Below, in pieces: positions 10,181 through 18,021 of a stretch of DNA of 64,000 bases. Under the pieces are notes generated by a model, which saw only the letters and a list, made by a program, of their open reading frames with translations, did not search any database and was not told where the DNA came from. Location: IMG/VR virus record IMGVR_UViG_3300031962_000001, positions 1 to 64,000 of that record. One strand, given 5' to 3'. The stretch's first letter is position 1, and every line of letters begins with the position of its first letter. The position numbers and the translations under genes were made by a program. The DNA comes from a virus.

Positions 10181-10709
10181 CATCTATGAAATTATCAAGC
10201 AAGACAATCCTAAGCTGGCAGAAACGTTGGACACTAATCACGACGTCTGCGATTTTCTCATGGCTCTGTACACTCAGCTTCACTATGCTGCCATGGAATC
10301 TTCCAAGAACCCGGTAGATATGCGCTGCAATATCACTGTGGAGAAAGAGCGTCTGCTAATCATCCGCACGAGCTACGTCGGAGACAGTGGTGGAAGAATA
10401 GACATCGGTACGAAACTGCCACGTCAGCGGAATCTTAATCTCGTGAAGTTTCTCCAAGTAAATCGTAACGTAAGGGATGTGGCTCTAAACGTAGTATACG
10501 CTTTGGAAGCGTGGCTCAATGAACTTCCGGTCAGAAAGAAGCAGGGATTCAAGAACATCAAGATAGAAAACGCCATGAAGTGGAGATCGGGAGAGATCAC
10601 GGCGGAGCTAGTGCTGAAGTTTGAATTCGACGAGATGGTAGCTGCGAAGATGAATTGGCAGATGGACGAACCGGAGCAGCCAACTGAAGAAGGGAGCATT
10701 ATCGTATGA
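10170..10709 (+). CDS. hypothetical protein
   Basis: ATG at 10170 (MPSNIYEII) overlapping the upstream gene end; coupled to the next gene by ATGA. Confidence 0.6.
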   Translation: MPSNIYEIIKQDNPKLAETLDTNHDVCDFLMALYTQLHYAAMESSKNPVDMRCNITVEKERLLIIRTSYVGDSGGRIDIGTKLPRQRNLNLVKFLQVNRNVRDVALNVVYALEAWLNELPVRKKQGFKNIKIENAMKWRSGEITAELVLKFEFDEMVAAKMNWQMDEPEQPTEEGSIIV

Positions 10710-11686
10710 GCATCATCGCATGTGCAGGATCAGACGAAGGACCGGGAGCGAATTTCACGCCGCCGACTCTTGGCGAGTTCATGAAGAACCAGGAAACTCA
10801 GCTCAGGCGTCTGCGTGAAGCGCGTGTCGGCGCTTCGGTCGTAAGAGAAGCTCGCCTGTTCCACGAGAAGCAGGCGCAGAAGCATGGCCTCCACACGAAG
10901 CGTGGCATAGCGCATCTTCGCGCCGCTCGCATGTTCTCGAGAGAGGCTGGCGCTTCATTGCAGGAGCGTCTCGAAAGCTTCAACAATCAAGTGGGCGAAA
11001 TCGATCCAAACACGCTGGCGAAGGCTACGAAGGACACCATCAACTTCCACAAGAAGATGGCGCAGAAGCACGGACTTGACAGCGACTTGGGACATGCTCA
11101 CACTTCTGCGATGGAACATCACATGGACACTCTCCAACAGTTGAAGAAAGGAGCCGGTCAACCTCAGCAGCCTCCACAGCAAGTTTCTGGCGAGGAAGCG
11201 TACGAAGGCGGTCCAGGGAGTGGACCTAAGAAGTCTGGATTTGATGACAAGAAAAGAACTTGGACTAGCCCAGAAGGTAAGACAGTAGGTATGGATAAGA
11301 AACCTGGAAAATATCCGAAGTACCATGAACGCGAAGCTCTCCCCGGCAAGTCTGGCAAACAGCTTCCTGTCCCGGTCCCAAACAAGTCCCAGATGCCTAG
11401 CCAAGATATCAAGCAGGACAAGCCACCGATAGATCTTGACGCTCAGCAAGGCGGCGGTCAGCGATTGCAGCAGACGTATGGAGCCCATGCTGGGATGAGA
11501 GCCAGCAAGAAGCCGACGTTCGAGTCGCGCTTTCGTCGGTTTGAGCGCGAAGCTCGCGGCCCATACGACGGCGAATGCGCTTTGCCTACCTCCGTCAAGA
11601 AGCAGGTCGGCAAGGATCTGGTAGACGAAGGACCAAGAGTAAAGCGCGAAGCACGGAGGTCTCTTCGGCGAAGGCGGACCGGGTAG
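10706..11686 (+). CDS. putative internal head protein (zero-frame product; probable +1 extension to 12269)
   Basis: Charged low-complexity protein with many R-E-A sites and an EGGPGSGPKK motif; lies upstream of the prohead protease. Confidence 0.6.
   Translation: MSIIACAGSDEGPGANFTPPTLGEFMKNQETQLRRLREARVGASVVREARLFHEKQAQKHGLHTKRGIAHLRAARMFSREAGASLQERLESFNNQVGEIDPNTLAKATKDTINFHKKMAQKHGLDSDLGHAHTSAMEHHMDTLQQLKKGAGQPQQPPQQVSGEEAYEGGPGSGPKKSGFDDKKRTWTSPEGKTVGMDKKPGKYPKYHEREALPGKSGKQLPVPVPNKSQMPSQDIKQDKPPIDLDAQQGGGQRLQQTYGAHAGMRASKKPTFESRFRRFEREARGPYDGECALPTSVKKQVGKDLVDEGPRVKREARRSLRRRRTG
11654..11669 (+). other. prfB-like +1 ribosomal frameshift cassette (CGGAGG-TCT-CTT-CGG-C)
   Basis: GGAGG 11655-11659, 3-nt spacer, CTT 11663-11665. 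The +1 frame reads on as GEGGPGSGPKK, with no start codon between TAA 11640 and GTG 11808. Confidence 0.6.
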
Positions 11687-12379: not shown

Positions 12380-12399
12380 CAAGCCTATAGGAGAAAAAC

Positions 12400-13107
12400 A
12401 TGCCGCTAACAGATCTAGACTTGAGACCCTCACTCTCAGACGAAGAGGGTGCCACGTTCGAAGTAGGCTATTTCAACAAGAAGCAAGTGAAGCCAAAGAA
12501 ACTCCGTGAAGCGCTGAGACTCACCGTCGATGAAGACTCATCGTTCGATGACACGTTCCGCCTGCGTGAAGCTGGAGCAGGTCTAGCACCGTCTCAGAAC
12601 AATCAACAGTTCGCTCGTGGCGTTCCGATGGATGACAAGTCCACGTCGAAGAACTACAACTCGCAGATCATCGACGGTGAGCACAAGTCACTGCTCAGCT
12701 TGGGCAAGATCAACGAAGCGATGGAGGATGATGAACATAGTGAGCATATTCTTGAACATCGCATTCTGCTGGCGAATCCTAAGCTATCAGAGACACAACG
12801 CGCTAACCTTATGGCGCATCTCGAGAGCCACGTCAAGGCTCGCGGCAAGAAGATGAAAGAACTCAAGGCGGCAGCTGAAGGCAAAGGCAAGCAGAACGAC
12901 ATGGATGTGATGACCGGAGCTGCGAAATATAAAAAGGGACTCGGTATGCAATCGAAGGCTATGCCTGCGACACGATATGACGTAATACCACAAGACTCGC
13001 AGGTAGATCAGGAGCGCAAGCGGACCGCTGGCAATATGAGCATGGAATCCAGATTCGGGAGGTTCGACCGAGCGTTGAGGACATCTCGACTCCGGAGGTC
13101 GCTTTGA
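12400..13107 (+). CDS. putative internal head protein (zero-frame product; probable +1 extension to 13525)
   Basis: AGGAGA RBS; KLREA, RLREA and ESRFGRFDR motifs; ends R-R-S-L-stop. Confidence 0.65.
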   Translation: MPLTDLDLRPSLSDEEGATFEVGYFNKKQVKPKKLREALRLTVDEDSSFDDTFRLREAGAGLAPSQNNQQFARGVPMDDKSTSKNYNSQIIDGEHKSLLSLGKINEAMEDDEHSEHILEHRILLANPKLSETQRANLMAHLESHVKARGKKMKELKAAAEGKGKQNDMDVMTGAAKYKKGLGMQSKAMPATRYDVIPQDSQVDQERKRTAGNMSMESRFGRFDRALRTSRLRRSL

Positions 13108-13108
13108 A
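13093..13108 (+). other. prfB-type +1 frameshift cassette (CGGAGG-TCG-CTT-TGA-A)
   Basis: SD-like GGAGG 13094-13098, 3 nt, CTT 13102-13104, TGA 13105-13107. The +1 frame is open and in frame with ORF 13172-13525. Confidence 0.75.
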
Positions 13109-13525
13109 GTTGACGAGTTTTCGCCGAACTTTCCGCAGCTGGGAAGAAAGACACAGGGGCGTCGGTTCAATGTGTACCATAAGGAAGCGAATCAGACCAG
13201 GGATTTCAGGAAGAAGAATCCCGGCGTAGATGGCGCAATCAGCGACCCTCCGCCGGACATGAAACTGAAACCACCGATGACAGGGGAACTGGACAAGAGC
13301 ATGACCGGCAGAAATCAGCAATACGGGAATTTCTTGGCGAACTGGAACGATCCAAGAAACAAGGACGCTGCCAGAGAAGGCAACAGAGGCAACGTGATCC
13401 AAGATTCCAGAGGAAACAGTCTATCGCGTGGCGATTACGGAAAAGGCATGAACCCAAATTATACTGGTGATCTGGCAAAGAAATCACACGGGGATATCAT
13501 GAAATCAAAGGCACCGAGGTACTAA
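13106..13525 (+). CDS. +1-frame extension of 12400 gene (contains ORF 13172-13525)
   Basis: +1 frame reads EVDEFSPNFPQLGRKTQGRRFNVYHKEAN...; GTG 13172 has only a weak RBS. Confidence 0.65.
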   Translation, partial: EVDEFSPNFPQLGRKTQGRRFNVYHKEANQTRDFRKKNPGVDGAISDPPPDMKLKPPMTGELDKSMTGRNQQYGNFLANWNDPRNKDAAREGNRGNVIQDSRGNSLSRGDYGKGMNPNYTGDLAKKSHGDIMKSKAPRY

Positions 13526-14142
13526 TGAGAAGCGTGTATCTAATCCGGAATCGTGCTAACGGGAAGGTCTATGTAGGGAAGACCATCAGAGGGATAGAGA
13601 ATAGATTTCTAGAGCACATCTCTGGCCGTAACTCATCCTTGCTTCTTACCAGAGCCATGAATAAGTATGGTCTGGACAAATTTGAAATCTTCACGATTTA
13701 TAAAGATGCCGTAACAGATGGACATCTGAACATGCTGGAAGAGATGTACATCAAGATGTACCGAGCGAATGACAAACGCTATGGATACAATCTTACGGAG
13801 GGTGGAGATGGCCTTGTCAATCCTTCTGAAGCTGTTCGTAAGAAGATGAGAAAATCGCATGTCATGTCTGAAGAAGGCTCTAGAAGAATTGCTGAAGCTG
13901 CAATGGGAAATAAACGAGCTTCTAATATGTCTGAAGCAAAGCGTATGAAGTTGAGTAAGTTGATGAGGGAAAAGAGAAGGAAGTGGGGGGATAAGTATTG
14001 TTCACACGCCTTCTCTAATGAGGCTAGAAGAAAGATGCGGATTTCCAGAAGGCAGTATTTGAATAGCTTGACTGCTGAGGAACGCAGTCATATATTCAGC
14101 GGGGCTGCCAAAAGAGAAAGACTAGAGAAGAAGGCTGCGTAA
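13525..14142 (+). CDS. GIY-YIG homing endonuclease with NUMOD-like C-terminal repeats
   Basis: SVYLIRNRANGKVYVGKT, RFLEH, E..YIK, GYNLTEGGDG, SEAVRKKMRKSH. Confidence 0.85.
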   Translation: MRSVYLIRNRANGKVYVGKTIRGIENRFLEHISGRNSSLLLTRAMNKYGLDKFEIFTIYKDAVTDGHLNMLEEMYIKMYRANDKRYGYNLTEGGDGLVNPSEAVRKKMRKSHVMSEEGSRRIAEAAMGNKRASNMSEAKRMKLSKLMREKRRKWGDKYCSHAFSNEARRKMRISRRQYLNSLTAEERSHIFSGAAKRERLEKKAA

Positions 14143-14143
14143 A

Positions 14144-16408
14144 ATGCCAAATTCTAGTTCACAACATGGGCAACTTCAGAGAGCTGGTATACAACGTTTG
14201 ATCTCTGATAAAAAAGGAAAGAAGAGGAAGAAGCTAGTCGCTTCTAAAATCAGAGAATCCTTCGGTGGCAAAATCTTTACAGAAAAGGGTCAAGACGAAA
14301 CTGGAAAGTCTGCTAACGGAAAACAACAAAAGAGCCGTGTCTACTTGGTTACGATTATTGAGGAAGGCTTAGGCAACTCGAAAGATCGCAATTATTATAG
14401 CAGCGACGCTCTCAAGTCTGGCACTAACGTATTCAATGGCGCGAAAGCCTACGCTGACCATCCAGACGCCATAACCGAAAAGACACTGCCAGAGCGCAGC
14501 ATGAAGGATTTGGTAGGTTGGTATAGCGATTGTTTTGTCGACAAGAATCCCCAAACCGGCAAGGCTCGTCTGCGTGGTAAGCTCCACTTCTTCCCATCCG
14601 CTAAGTGGCTCACCGACATGATCGACACAATTCTAACTGACAAGTCTGCCAAAAATCTTTTCGGGATATCTATCAATGCCGTAGGCCGAACAAGGCCAGC
14701 GCAAATGAACGGCGAAGAAGTGAACTATGTAGAAGAATTTCAGCGAGTAGACAGTGCTGACGTAGTGACAGAGCCAGCAGCACGAGGAAAGTTCGACCAA
14801 ATGCTGGAGTCTAGGCGATCTGTCGCGGGCGGTCACTCACGGAAAGTAAGTAACAGTATGGGAACTCGAAGCAAACGAACGAGAGAATCGGCGGTCTTAA
14901 GCCCCGAGAAGGCAAAAGAAGTTGCTGACGCTCTCGTATCGGCATATAACTCGGACAATCCAGACGAAATGAAAGAAGCATCGTTTTCAGCGGCGAAACA
15001 ACTCTACGCTGTTTCTTCCATATCTGGCAAAGGTCCGGGACAGCCAAACGAAGAGCAGTACAGCAACATCAATCCAAGTGGAGGTAAAGAGTCAATGGCA
15101 AAGAGTAAGAAGATGAAAGCCTCCATCGGACGGCGATCTTTCCGCAAAGGCAAGAGGCTTGTGGCCGCCGATGGCAAGGGAGCTGATAACGAAAACGTAG
15201 ACGAACCAGATCCTGACGACATCGAGCCTCGTTTGGAGGAATCCGATGTTGAGGACGAGGAAGGCGACAAGGACGTCGGCGCTCTAGACGACTTCGGCGG
15301 CAGCAAGCATTATGCCAAGGAAGCTCGCGGCCGAGGCGGTCGTAGGATGGCAGCACAAGAGGGCTTCGAGGACGAAGGCTTTGAGGACGAGGGAGCAGAA
15401 GACGAGGGCTTCGAAGATGAGGACGAGGGATTCGAAGACGAGGATGGCGGAATGCCAGGAGCGATGCCTCCGGGAGCGGGAATGGGTGCTGCTCCGGGTG
15501 GTGGTGCTCCGGGTTCTTCGCGAACCGTAGCATCTGCAGAAGCAGATGATGACGATGATGATGGTGATGATGATCTGGACGATATGGACGAGGCTTTCGA
15601 GGATGAAGACGAAGGCTTCGAGGATGAGGGGATGGAAGATGAAGGTGGCCAGATGCGTCCAGGAACAGTAGCAGAAGCAGGTCGTCGCCGGATGGCGGTC
15701 AGGGCAAGTGGTCGTAGTCCTCGCCGTCGTTTCAGCCGTGAAGCCGGACGTGCAAGCGGTCAAGGGCAGACTGTCAGCAAGGCCTCGTTCGCGGGTGGTC
15801 TCGGACACTCGGGGAACACTGCTTTGCCAAAGGGAGGCGACCCCACGAAGGGATACGATCCTGGAGGCACAGACGAGGATTGGGGCAAGAAGGACGATTC
15901 CACGTCTGCCGTGGGCAAGTCCTACAAGATCAAGACCAGCAAGTTCCGTCGCAACAAGGTAGCGCGTCGTGTCGCTCAAGAAGCCAATCGCCGCATTGAG
16001 ATTCTCGAGCATAACGTCATGCGTCTACGTGAATCCCTCAAGGCAACTGGGCGCACGCTCAATCGGTACAAGGGCATCGTCCGATTCACCGAATCTCAGA
16101 AGAGCGCACATCGGCTTCTGAACAGAGCTGTCGAAGAAGGTTTCCTTCCGGAGGAAATGGTCAACGAATCTCGAGTCCTGCGGGAATCTCTGTATGGCTT
16201 GAGTGAACGTGATCAGATCCGGGAGATCAAAAAGACTGCACTACTTCTTGAATCTGCTCAAGAGGGAGTGGTGTCTCGTTTGTCTGAAAGCGTTGATGGA
16301 AGTGGAGCCAGAGGCGGCGCTGTATCCTATATAAGGACCGCCGGAGCAGAAGACTCTGAGCTCGCTGCGGGATTTGCCGATGACGGCATTCCCCTCAAAG
16401 ACGAATAA
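14144..16408 (+). CDS. prohead maturation protease fused to scaffolding protein
   Basis: IIEEGLGNSKDRNYYS, AYADHP, RSMKDLVG, GISINA, SADVVTEPAARG protease motifs; acidic linker and coiled-coil C-terminus; lies upstream of decoration and capsid genes; probable internal start (GGAGG...ATG 15095). Confidence 0.8.
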   Translation: MPNSSSQHGQLQRAGIQRLISDKKGKKRKKLVASKIRESFGGKIFTEKGQDETGKSANGKQQKSRVYLVTIIEEGLGNSKDRNYYSSDALKSGTNVFNGAKAYADHPDAITEKTLPERSMKDLVGWYSDCFVDKNPQTGKARLRGKLHFFPSAKWLTDMIDTILTDKSAKNLFGISINAVGRTRPAQMNGEEVNYVEEFQRVDSADVVTEPAARGKFDQMLESRRSVAGGHSRKVSNSMGTRSKRTRESAVLSPEKAKEVADALVSAYNSDNPDEMKEASFSAAKQLYAVSSISGKGPGQPNEEQYSNINPSGGKESMAKSKKMKASIGRRSFRKGKRLVAADGKGADNENVDEPDPDDIEPRLEESDVEDEEGDKDVGALDDFGGSKHYAKEARGRGGRRMAAQEGFEDEGFEDEGAEDEGFEDEDEGFEDEDGGMPGAMPPGAGMGAAPGGGAPGSSRTVASAEADDDDDDGDDDLDDMDEAFEDEDEGFEDEGMEDEGGQMRPGTVAEAGRRRMAVRASGRSPRRRFSREAGRASGQGQTVSKASFAGGLGHSGNTALPKGGDPTKGYDPGGTDEDWGKKDDSTSAVGKSYKIKTSKFRRNKVARRVAQEANRRIEILEHNVMRLRESLKATGRTLNRYKGIVRFTESQKSAHRLLNRAVEEGFLPEEMVNESRVLRESLYGLSERDQIREIKKTALLLESAQEGVVSRLSESVDGSGARGGAVSYIRTAGAEDSELAAGFADDGIPLKDE

Positions 16409-16430
16409 TCTGTAGTTCGGAGGAAATACA

Positions 16431-16934
16431 GTGTCACAACCGTTTAACGTAGTGAAGATCGAGAAGGAACGGGTAAGCCAAGTCCCCGTCAATCTCGCCA
16501 CTGCTTTCAACTCTGGCGATATGATGAAATGGGACCCAGCGAACCTCGTTGCTACTCCGATCGTAGCAGGTGACGCAGCCTCCGCAGCCGCAGCCGCTCT
16601 GTTCATCGGCGTCTCCAACGATACGAACCCGATCACTAGCTTGAGCCAGAACTTGCCCGTGTCTAGGATCGCTATTGTCACGCGTGGAATGTGTCTATTC
16701 ACGTGCGACGATTCGGCTACGTATTACGCTGGCGACGCCGTGACGTTCGGAGCCGACCCTCAGAAGATCCGTCATACGGGTGCTTCTGGAACTAACGTGA
16801 TTGGTTACGTTGCTCCAGAAAACACGTTCACGGTATCTGCTGGCGGACAGTCTGTAGGCATCGCAGCGACTCAGGGCGTAACACAGCTTCTGATCAATCT
16901 GCGGCCTCAGTACACGCAGTTGACGACGATCTAA
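16431..16934 (+). CDS. capsid decoration/cement protein
   Basis: GGAGG RBS + GTG; AFNSGDMM..FIGVS..TRG..AGDAV..NVIGYV pattern; sits between scaffold and major capsid genes. Confidence 0.65.
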   Translation: MSQPFNVVKIEKERVSQVPVNLATAFNSGDMMKWDPANLVATPIVAGDAASAAAAALFIGVSNDTNPITSLSQNLPVSRIAIVTRGMCLFTCDDSATYYAGDAVTFGADPQKIRHTGASGTNVIGYVAPENTFTVSAGGQSVGIAATQGVTQLLINLRPQYTQLTTI

Positions 16935-16950
16935 TGGAGGAATGAGGAAA

Positions 16951-18021
16951 ATGAGAACCCCAATGAATCGATGGGACGAGGTTGCAGCCAAGATCGATTG
17001 GTTCAGCCCCGAACTCAGCTTCCGCCGCCTCCGTGAGAGTGCTTATCGTCAATCACGGGTCTTGCGCGAAGCGAATGCTGAGTCTGCTTTTGGACAGTTG
17101 TTGAGAGCGGGAGTACAGACTTACGCGATCAACAGCTATAACACAGTTCCAGTGATCTATCCCGATCTCGTGACAGAAGTAGCGTCACGTCGTTTCCAAG
17201 AGTACTACGCTCCGTTGTATCGCCCCAATCTACCGAAGCGCGTTGATCGTGGCCAAGAGTTCCAAGACAATCCAGTAGTTGGACTCGACCGTCACTTGAC
17301 CAACCAGAAATTCGGCATGATCGAGGCGTTTGAGCGCGAACTCTTTGATGACGATCAGACCGGGCAGATCAAGAACCGTGCGAGCCAGATGGGTGAGAAC
17401 TTCAAGATCATGGAAGAAATCTACGTGATCGGGAAGATCATCGGCGCTGGCTTCACAGTTCAGGGTGTCACGGTGGACCCGGATGTCAGCTTCACCGACA
17501 CGGTTCCAGCTGGCTTCACTGGCACTGGCTCCTACAATACTTCTAAGGGCAATCGCCCCGGCACGTTCGTCCGTCTGTCTCAATTGAACCTGGAAACTGC
17601 CGACATCAACCTGATGAACATAACCGATCCTCTTGGAAACAAGTTCCTCGTGTCTCCGAATACATTGTTGGTCTCGCCAATCGACAAGTTCGTAGGCGCG
17701 AAGCTCTTGAATTCCACGTTGCAGCCATCTGTCCCGTCTGCATCTCCTGACGCGACTGGCTACACGATGACGGTCAATCCTCTGCAAGGACTGTACAAGC
17801 TACTGGTCTCAAGGTTCCTCACGTCCAAAGCGTGGATCCTTGGCGACCCGAAGAAATGTATGGTCTTCCAGCGGCGCGACCCTCTGGAGATCATCCAAGA
17901 GAACCCGGCTTCTGGCCAGTCGTTCAGCATGGAAGTCTATCGGTTCAAGTCTCGCTCACGTTTTGAAGTCGGCATGATTGAAAGTCGCTTCAACTACATG
18001 GGTGACGATGGCACAGTCTGA
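16951..18021 (+). CDS. major capsid protein (HK97 fold, Mu gpT-like)
   Basis: KFGMIEAFERELFDDDQTGQI, PNTLLVSP, NPLQG...VSRFLTSKAWIL, FQRRDPLE...YRFKSRSRF; followed by a terminator. Start 16942 or 16951. Confidence 0.85.
   Translation: MRTPMNRWDEVAAKIDWFSPELSFRRLRESAYRQSRVLREANAESAFGQLLRAGVQTYAINSYNTVPVIYPDLVTEVASRRFQEYYAPLYRPNLPKRVDRGQEFQDNPVVGLDRHLTNQKFGMIEAFERELFDDDQTGQIKNRASQMGENFKIMEEIYVIGKIIGAGFTVQGVTVDPDVSFTDTVPAGFTGTGSYNTSKGNRPGTFVRLSQLNLETADINLMNITDPLGNKFLVSPNTLLVSPIDKFVGAKLLNSTLQPSVPSASPDATGYTMTVNPLQGLYKLLVSRFLTSKAWILGDPKKCMVFQRRDPLEIIQENPASGQSFSMEVYRFKSRSRFEVGMIESRFNYMGDDGTV

Follow-up and report, generated by a model that had tools for sequence, protein, structure and literature searches.

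What is the recoding signal of a bacterial prfB gene doing at the end of a gene in a phage head module? We analysed the first 64 kb (the window) of a linear 92,914-bp IMG/VR virus record from an uncultured soil phage. The ORF 12400-13107, whose product is referred to below as P0001, ends in frame with CGG AGG TCG CTT TGA A at 13093-13108, exactly as an earlier note on this DNA had claimed. The bacterial prfB +1 site consists of an SD-like AGGGGG, a 3-nt spacer and CUU UGA C (PMC12421855; PMC5009743), and the 3-nt SD spacing stimulates +1 shifts (PMC5009743). The likeness to this architecture that the earlier note had reported was borne out, as SD, 3-nt spacer, CUU and UGA all match in the phage gene. 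The reading frames and comparisons presented below indicate that the site very probably directs a programmed prfB-type +1 ribosomal frameshift, by which one gene would give rise to a probable prohead protein in two forms, one short and one with a C-terminal extension.

The +1 frame is open from 13079, after its last upstream stop (13076-13078), until the TAA at 13523-13525, and it joins the ORF 13172-13525, again in agreement with the earlier note. Since the zero and +1 frames overlap at 13079-13107 only, any frame change must fall within this stretch. At the homologous locus L005 the overlap of the two frames is reduced to 6 codons, barely longer than the cassette. If CTTT is read as a single step, the product has 374 aa and the sequence ...RLRRSL/EVDEFSPNFPQLGRK at its junction, and the tryptic junction peptide of this predicted fusion is SLEVDEFSPNFPQLGR. 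The motif GGAGGNNNCTTTGA occurs once in the 64-kb window against 0.06 occurrences expected, and a CTT-stop ending was found in one of 46 genes, namely gene 12400-13107. The coordinates of the relevant features are collected in Table 1.

Table 1. Features of the studied locus, of the head module around it and of the related cassettes (window coordinates unless indicated).
Feature	Position	Strand	Remark
326-aa gene, adjacent upstream	10706-11686	+	carries sister cassette
Sister cassette CGG AGG TCT CTT CGG	11654-11668	+	near end of gene 10706-11686
Ribosome-binding site GGAG	12390-12393	+	6 nt 5' of ATG 12400, read from sequence
Zero-frame ORF P0001, 235 aa	12400-13107	+	probable head-module protein
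L-R-E-A, residues 55-58, E57 invariant	12562-12573	+	candidate prohead-protease cleavage motif; putative cleavage
Stretch with 0 and +1 frames both open, 9 codons	13079-13107	+	sole overlap, 29 nt
SD-like GGAGG inside codons CGG AGG (Arg-Arg)	13094-13098	+	CGG, AGG fixed in 11/11 loci
3-nt spacer / E-site codon TCG	13099-13101	+	TCN or GGN in relatives
Slippery CTT_T	13102-13105	+	CTT (13102-13104) fixed in 11/11 loci; putative mechanism taken from prfB
Zero-frame stop TGA, A-site	13105-13107	+	next base A; A, G or T in relatives
+1-frame extension, 139 codons + TAA	13106-13525	+	predicted disordered, conserved short motifs
GIY-YIG homing endonuclease	13525-14142	+	inserted between extension and protease/scaffold gene
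754-aa protein with prohead protease domain (protease/scaffold)	14144-16408	+	context
Major capsid protein	16942-18021	+	context
Portal cassette and +1 ORF	L033:4444-4834 = genome 88,443-88,833		

We searched for homologues with the 374-aa read-through product. Among the 56 proteins retrieved, 55 were 224-255 aa long and covered the N-terminal 51-63% of the query. The sole longer homologue (P0054, 403 aa) was devoid of the extension and carried an HNH domain (PF13392) at its N-terminus, corresponding either to a homing endonuclease gene upstream that runs on into it or to a miscalled start. No in-frame fused homologue was detected among 5.8 billion clustered proteins, and a profile search against 1.84 billion representatives did not add any fused form. 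The C-terminus R-R-x-L was present in 52 of the 56 protein homologues; among the proteins with other ends, P0050 finishes with GRRA and P0055 with RRGLH. At the DNA level, 13 distinct loci were compared, consisting of 11 canonical loci plus L016 and L018. The 11 canonical loci, which come from separate metagenomes and encode proteins 44-71% identical, all display the gene end CGG AGG NNN CTT TGA, with a spacer made of one variable codon (TCN or GGN) in every case. The base 3' of TGA is A in the window; each of the 10 other loci has G, A or T there, and C never occurs. The cassette is probably present in about 45 further homologues too, as their RR-x-L ends suggest. The earlier note had considered that homologues might be simple fusions, or independent genes lacking the cassette; what we observed instead was a cassette invariant at the nucleotide level in 11 distinct loci, and no fused form.

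The constraint on the cassette was also visible at synonymous positions. Of 48 alignment columns with an invariant amino acid, eight encode Arg or Leu (four each) outside the cassette, and every one of these shows 4-5 different codons. By contrast, CGG, AGG and CTT of the cassette do not vary in any of the 11 loci; two two-fold columns, AAG (Lys) and TTC (Phe), are fixed too. Because the other Arg and Leu columns use four to five codons, synonymous sites can be considered as saturated, with the cassette codons alone being frozen. In this phage, CGG and AGG account for 7.6% and 16.9% of Arg codons, CTT for 17.4% of Leu codons and TGA for 48% of stops, and from this usage a chance coincidence of the four cassette codons is estimated at ~0.001 per sequence. 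A scan of IMG/VR with the cassette followed by a GAYGA pattern returned 13 loci, approximately the chance number by a rough estimate, one of which is a family member.

The two remaining loci of the comparison were informative. L018 is a natural control: it has no extension ORF, its gene ends with CGT AGA TAT TAA, and the Arg-Arg pair is kept while the SD-forming codons, CTT and TGA are absent. At L016:1009-1041, CTT CGA replaces CTT TGA; the zero frame reaches a stop after five further codons and the +1 frame enters straight at the NPGV...SDWPPDM module of the extension. The presence of CGA in the TGA position indicates that the stop codon is dispensable, which counts against the prfB-type reading.

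A cassette closed by a sense codon is also found in the window, in the 326-aa gene adjacent to that of P0001, where it is followed by a 200-codon +1 ORF. The sequence CGG AGG TCN CTT CGG is kept in this upstream gene at L002:1676, L003:1952 and L018:1829. In L001 and L013, both halves of the 326-aa gene match in one reading frame, suggesting that the gene may be an unshifted fusion in these two loci. The SD-N3-CTT grammar is common to both sites; however, with its CGG codon, the cassette of the adjacent gene is required to obtain one long protein, whereas the stop at the studied site yields a short isoform that is complete in itself. The codons CGG and CGA, which occupy the A site in the sense variants, are the two rarest Arg codons of this phage, and these variants suggest that a slow A site has been selected rather than RF2 sensing as such.

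A whole-genome scan revealed a third cassette, CGG AGG TCC CTT TGA G, outside the window at genome 88,443-88,457. It ends an 883-aa portal gene (phrog_10963, E 9e-13), after which comes a 125-codon +1 ORF. In genomes G001 and G003, the portal frame continues unshifted into a tail, the homologue of the final ~50 residues of this +1 ORF, with the shared sequence ...SMEPFKPQDG..QRPR...GASK.E. Because these relatives carry the tail in frame, the conserved portal tail would be reachable only via the cassette in the present genome. This situation independently supports a working cassette in the present combination of phage and host. The portal of this genome seems to have gained the cassette together with ~70 extra residues. 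The portal open frames of G001 and G003 are 1265 and 1338 aa long, versus 883 aa here (L035, L037-L039, L041). In the G001 portal, a ~1.1-kb in-frame insertion separates matched blocks and possibly corresponds to an intein or an inserted domain.

The sense versions of the cassette (CTT-CGG and CTT-CGA), which show that the stop codon is not essential, speak for a real frame change made by other means, for instance by a host tRNA-Leu reading CUUU as a four-base codon or by a near-obligatory shift with the 235-aa protein as a by-product. The phage genome itself was found to contain no tRNA gene. Four-base decoding is contradicted by other in-frame CTTT sequences present in homologues without frame change, and L001 read in this way would contain 5 stops. 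A quadruplet tRNA would moreover leave the frozen SD at 3-nt spacing unexplained, whereas the prfB mechanism explains that SD. As for obligatory shifting, L018 shows that the short form works alone. We consider it very improbable that the frame is changed in either of these ways.

We then turn to the extension itself. By tblastn, 12 of the 13 loci proved to contain it in the +1 frame, with E values of 1e-10 to 1e-34, the exception being L018. Its conserved motifs include E-S-D-E-F-S-P-N-I-P-Q-L-G-R-K and N-P-G-V-N-A-A-I-S-D-P-P-P-D-M. The organization is modular: module 1 corresponds to ESDEFSPNIPQLGRK..RFN, module 2 to NPGVNAAISDPPPDM(R/K)LKPPMRGEVDK and module 3 to GRNxQY, with a C-terminal module LSxGD..K..P.(Y/W). 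The extension was predicted to be disordered in a low-confidence AF2 model (pTM 0.13). In G004, CGGAGGATCCTTCGA lies outside any real ORF and was rejected as a chance match. Conservation of the +1 peptide begins at codon 1 after the slip site. Over the first 15 codons past the site, all 15 third positions are variable, versus 7 first positions and 6 second positions, and the conserved serines of the extension alternate between TCN and AGY. Gene callers recovered the extension ORF in 7 clusters, compared to 56 for the N-terminal gene.

Such a conserved peptide could belong to an independent gene translated from its own start, for instance GTG 13172, in which case GGAGG would serve for translational coupling. 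An SD located just ahead of a stop codon is indeed common in coupled operons (PMC5009743), GTG 13172 does open a 117-aa ORF, and four database ORFs start a few codons 5' of the site in the +1 frame. However, the sequence upstream of this GTG contains just a weak GGGG, confirming the weak ribosome-binding site reported earlier, and no start is conserved among the loci: 8 of 11 loci lack any +1-frame ATG, GTG or TTG from the upstream stop to the site, the other 3 having chance start codons there, and the first downstream candidates are found at codons 16-58, without SD and within the conserved peptide. No +1-frame start is located at initiation distance from GGAGG, and the TTG at 13104 belongs to the other frame, with an open stretch of just 41 codons. 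Conservation and codon periodicity that start from the first codon past the site are not expected of two independent genes, which would also leave the frozen CTT unexplained. This possibility appears to us less probable still.

The conserved 15-mer could also be maintained as a site on the DNA, such as the target of a homing endonuclease. A gene for a GIY-YIG endonuclease follows a short way downstream in the window as well as in L001 and L010, and the N-terminal HNH domain mentioned above is present in one homologue. Nevertheless, the cassette is equally conserved in endonuclease-free loci, the insertion point of the endonuclease is ~420 nt away from it, the three central nucleotides of the motif are free, and its reading phase is constant. 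In addition, frame changes in two other genes are marked by the same motif. A DNA-level site is scarcely credible under these circumstances. Finally, a sequencing or assembly indel, which the earlier note had envisaged, or a decaying gene, the true gene being a single 374-aa ORF, would account for the 29-nt frame overlap, as a one-base error would give, but has a negligible probability given the identical frame break at the invariant cassette in 11 distinct loci from separate metagenomes, the 52 of 56 proteins that stop at the same leucine, and the failure to find an unbroken fused homologue in either protein collection. Two other processes were considered and rejected: transcriptional slippage, the site having just three consecutive T, and stop-codon readthrough or selenocysteine incorporation, the conserved ORF lying in the +1 and not in the zero frame.

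What could the two forms of P0001 be? The order 326-aa gene, P0001 gene, protease/scaffold, 167-aa gene and capsid is kept in relatives. The GIY-YIG endonuclease can be regarded as an incidental insertion, because it is confined to 3 of the compared loci (window, L001 and L010). In L003, the match to the protease/scaffold gene is split by ~300 nt past residue 27. No function could be assigned to P0001 or to the extension via Pfam, PHROGs, PDB sequence search, ESM Atlas or Foldseek versus BFVD. No relatives were found among cultured phages or in 185,579 prokaryote genomes.

AF2 modelling of the 235-aa protein gave a low-confidence, mostly disordered structure in which residues 113-164 form a helical hairpin predicted with confidence. 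Four histidines of this hairpin, H116, H120, H140 and H144 (window 12745-12834, residues 116-144), are invariant or near-invariant. They form two HxxxH pairs (H116/H120 and H140/H144) on the two helices of this sole confidently predicted hairpin, and in the model the four histidines may form a metal site.

P0001 contains a second LREA at residues 35-38, in addition to that of Table 1. The pattern [LVI]-R-E-[ASG] has 14 matches in the 18,091 residues of the genome, and 11 of the 14 are within five head proteins that represent 14% of the scanned residues: P0001, the 326-aa protein, the protease/scaffold, the capsid (at its N-terminus) and the portal. The motif is typically present in two copies near the N-terminus, and the motif-rich regions are window 12400-18021 and genome 85,806-88,457. 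The pattern fits a substrate of the prohead protease, and hence suggests a prohead-internal protein. P0001 is thus a probable head protein on the basis of synteny and of the shared motif, and it would be a component of the virion.

According to the programmed prfB-type shift, which we favour, the ribosome would pause with CUU in the P site and UGA in the A site, and GGAGG, 3 nt upstream, would pair with the anti-SD of 16S rRNA, straining the complex. Some ribosomes would terminate at this point and release the 235-aa protein. In the remaining ribosomes, peptidyl-tRNA-Leu would slip from CUU to UUU and GAA would be decoded next, adding the 139-residue disordered tail and leading to the 374-aa form. 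In prfB, UGA is followed by C, which is a weak termination context, and a non-C base after UGA should favour termination. Since this base is A, G or T at the phage site, the 374-aa form is expected to be the minor product. We infer the slip itself, its efficiency and the use of both forms at a fixed ratio in head assembly. The earlier note had proposed that two isoforms are made in a ratio set by host RF2. The existence of the 235-aa and 374-aa forms is supported by the conservation of the cassette, the lack of fused homologues in the collections searched and the coding character of the +1 frame; host RF2 would be the factor that sets their ratio.

The site can be compared to known recoding systems. 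The closest likeness is with prfB: both have an SD-like purine run separated from CUU by exactly 3 nt, a CUU_U slip and an in-frame UGA in the A site, and in both the +1 frame encodes a conserved protein without a start of its own and no 3' RNA structure is involved (none was conserved here, with a consensus fold of -3.4 kcal/mol). There are also clear differences. The studied gene is not a release factor, feedback via its own product is impossible, and no RF-1 domain was detected in the genome. The site occupies the 3' end of the gene (codon 235) instead of lying around codon 26, and reading in the zero frame yields a complete, conserved protein, whereas in prfB it yields a throw-away peptide. 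The sole structural feature of prfB that is not reproduced is the highly conserved C after UGA, replaced here by A, G or T. According to one survey, RECODE lists CUU-stop +1 sites for no gene other than prfB (PMC10274946). In a 238,888-bp IMG/VR jumbo-phage contig, we noticed a release-factor homologue with a GGQ motif that reads ...ERRFL-TGA and is continued in +1 (L024:9579-9602, minus strand); this is a predicted phage-borne RF gene with the prfB cassette.

In phages, +1 frameshifts are known for the capsid gene cps and the tail gene tsh of Listeria phage PSA and -1 frameshifts for 10A/10B of T7/T3 and G/GT of lambda (PMC5009743). As in these cases, the studied site belongs to a morphogenesis gene with one start, short and C-terminally extended products and a shift near the end of the ORF; as in PSA tsh, the shift site is beside a stop codon. 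However, PSA uses a proline-codon slip with a pseudoknot or a stop and no SD stimulator, and T7 and lambda use a -1 shift on heptamers; none of PSA, T7/T3 and lambda uses the SD-N3-CUU-UGA cassette. In the literature searched, we found no published account of a phage structural gene carrying this cassette. The +1 frameshift of the yeast Ty1 element occurs at CUU_AGG_C, where the A site holds a hungry, rare arginine codon; it is a eukaryotic system without SD stimulator. The combination of a CUU slip with a slow A-site codon resembles CTT-CGG (11663-11668) and the CTT-CGA of L016, whereas the studied site differs from Ty1 by its stop codon and by its SD stimulator.

The SD-N3-CUU-UGA signal is a textbook bacterial recoding signal that has hitherto been treated as private to prfB. 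Here, a virus would apply it to a new purpose, the production of two forms of an assembly protein from a single gene. A practical consequence concerns annotation: standard gene callers get these phage genes wrong, as only 7 of the 56 or more extensions were called, and none of the 7 correctly. With up to three cassettes per genome and variants with rare sense codons, the family offers a comparative series for the contribution of each element of the signal. We tentatively propose, as a possibility that is rather doubtful at present, that recoding forms a small regulon in this phage lineage. Up to three head genes (portal, 326-aa and 235-aa) would share a portable SD-N3-CUU cassette that ends in UGA or in one of the rarest Arg codons. 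The proportion of prohead isoforms that bear a tail would thereby follow the translational state of the host, i.e. the supply of RF2 or of rare tRNA-Arg, and genes could newly acquire the cassette, as the portal gene of this genome apparently did. The finding thus raises the testable idea that the composition of the phage head could depend on the termination capacity of the host.
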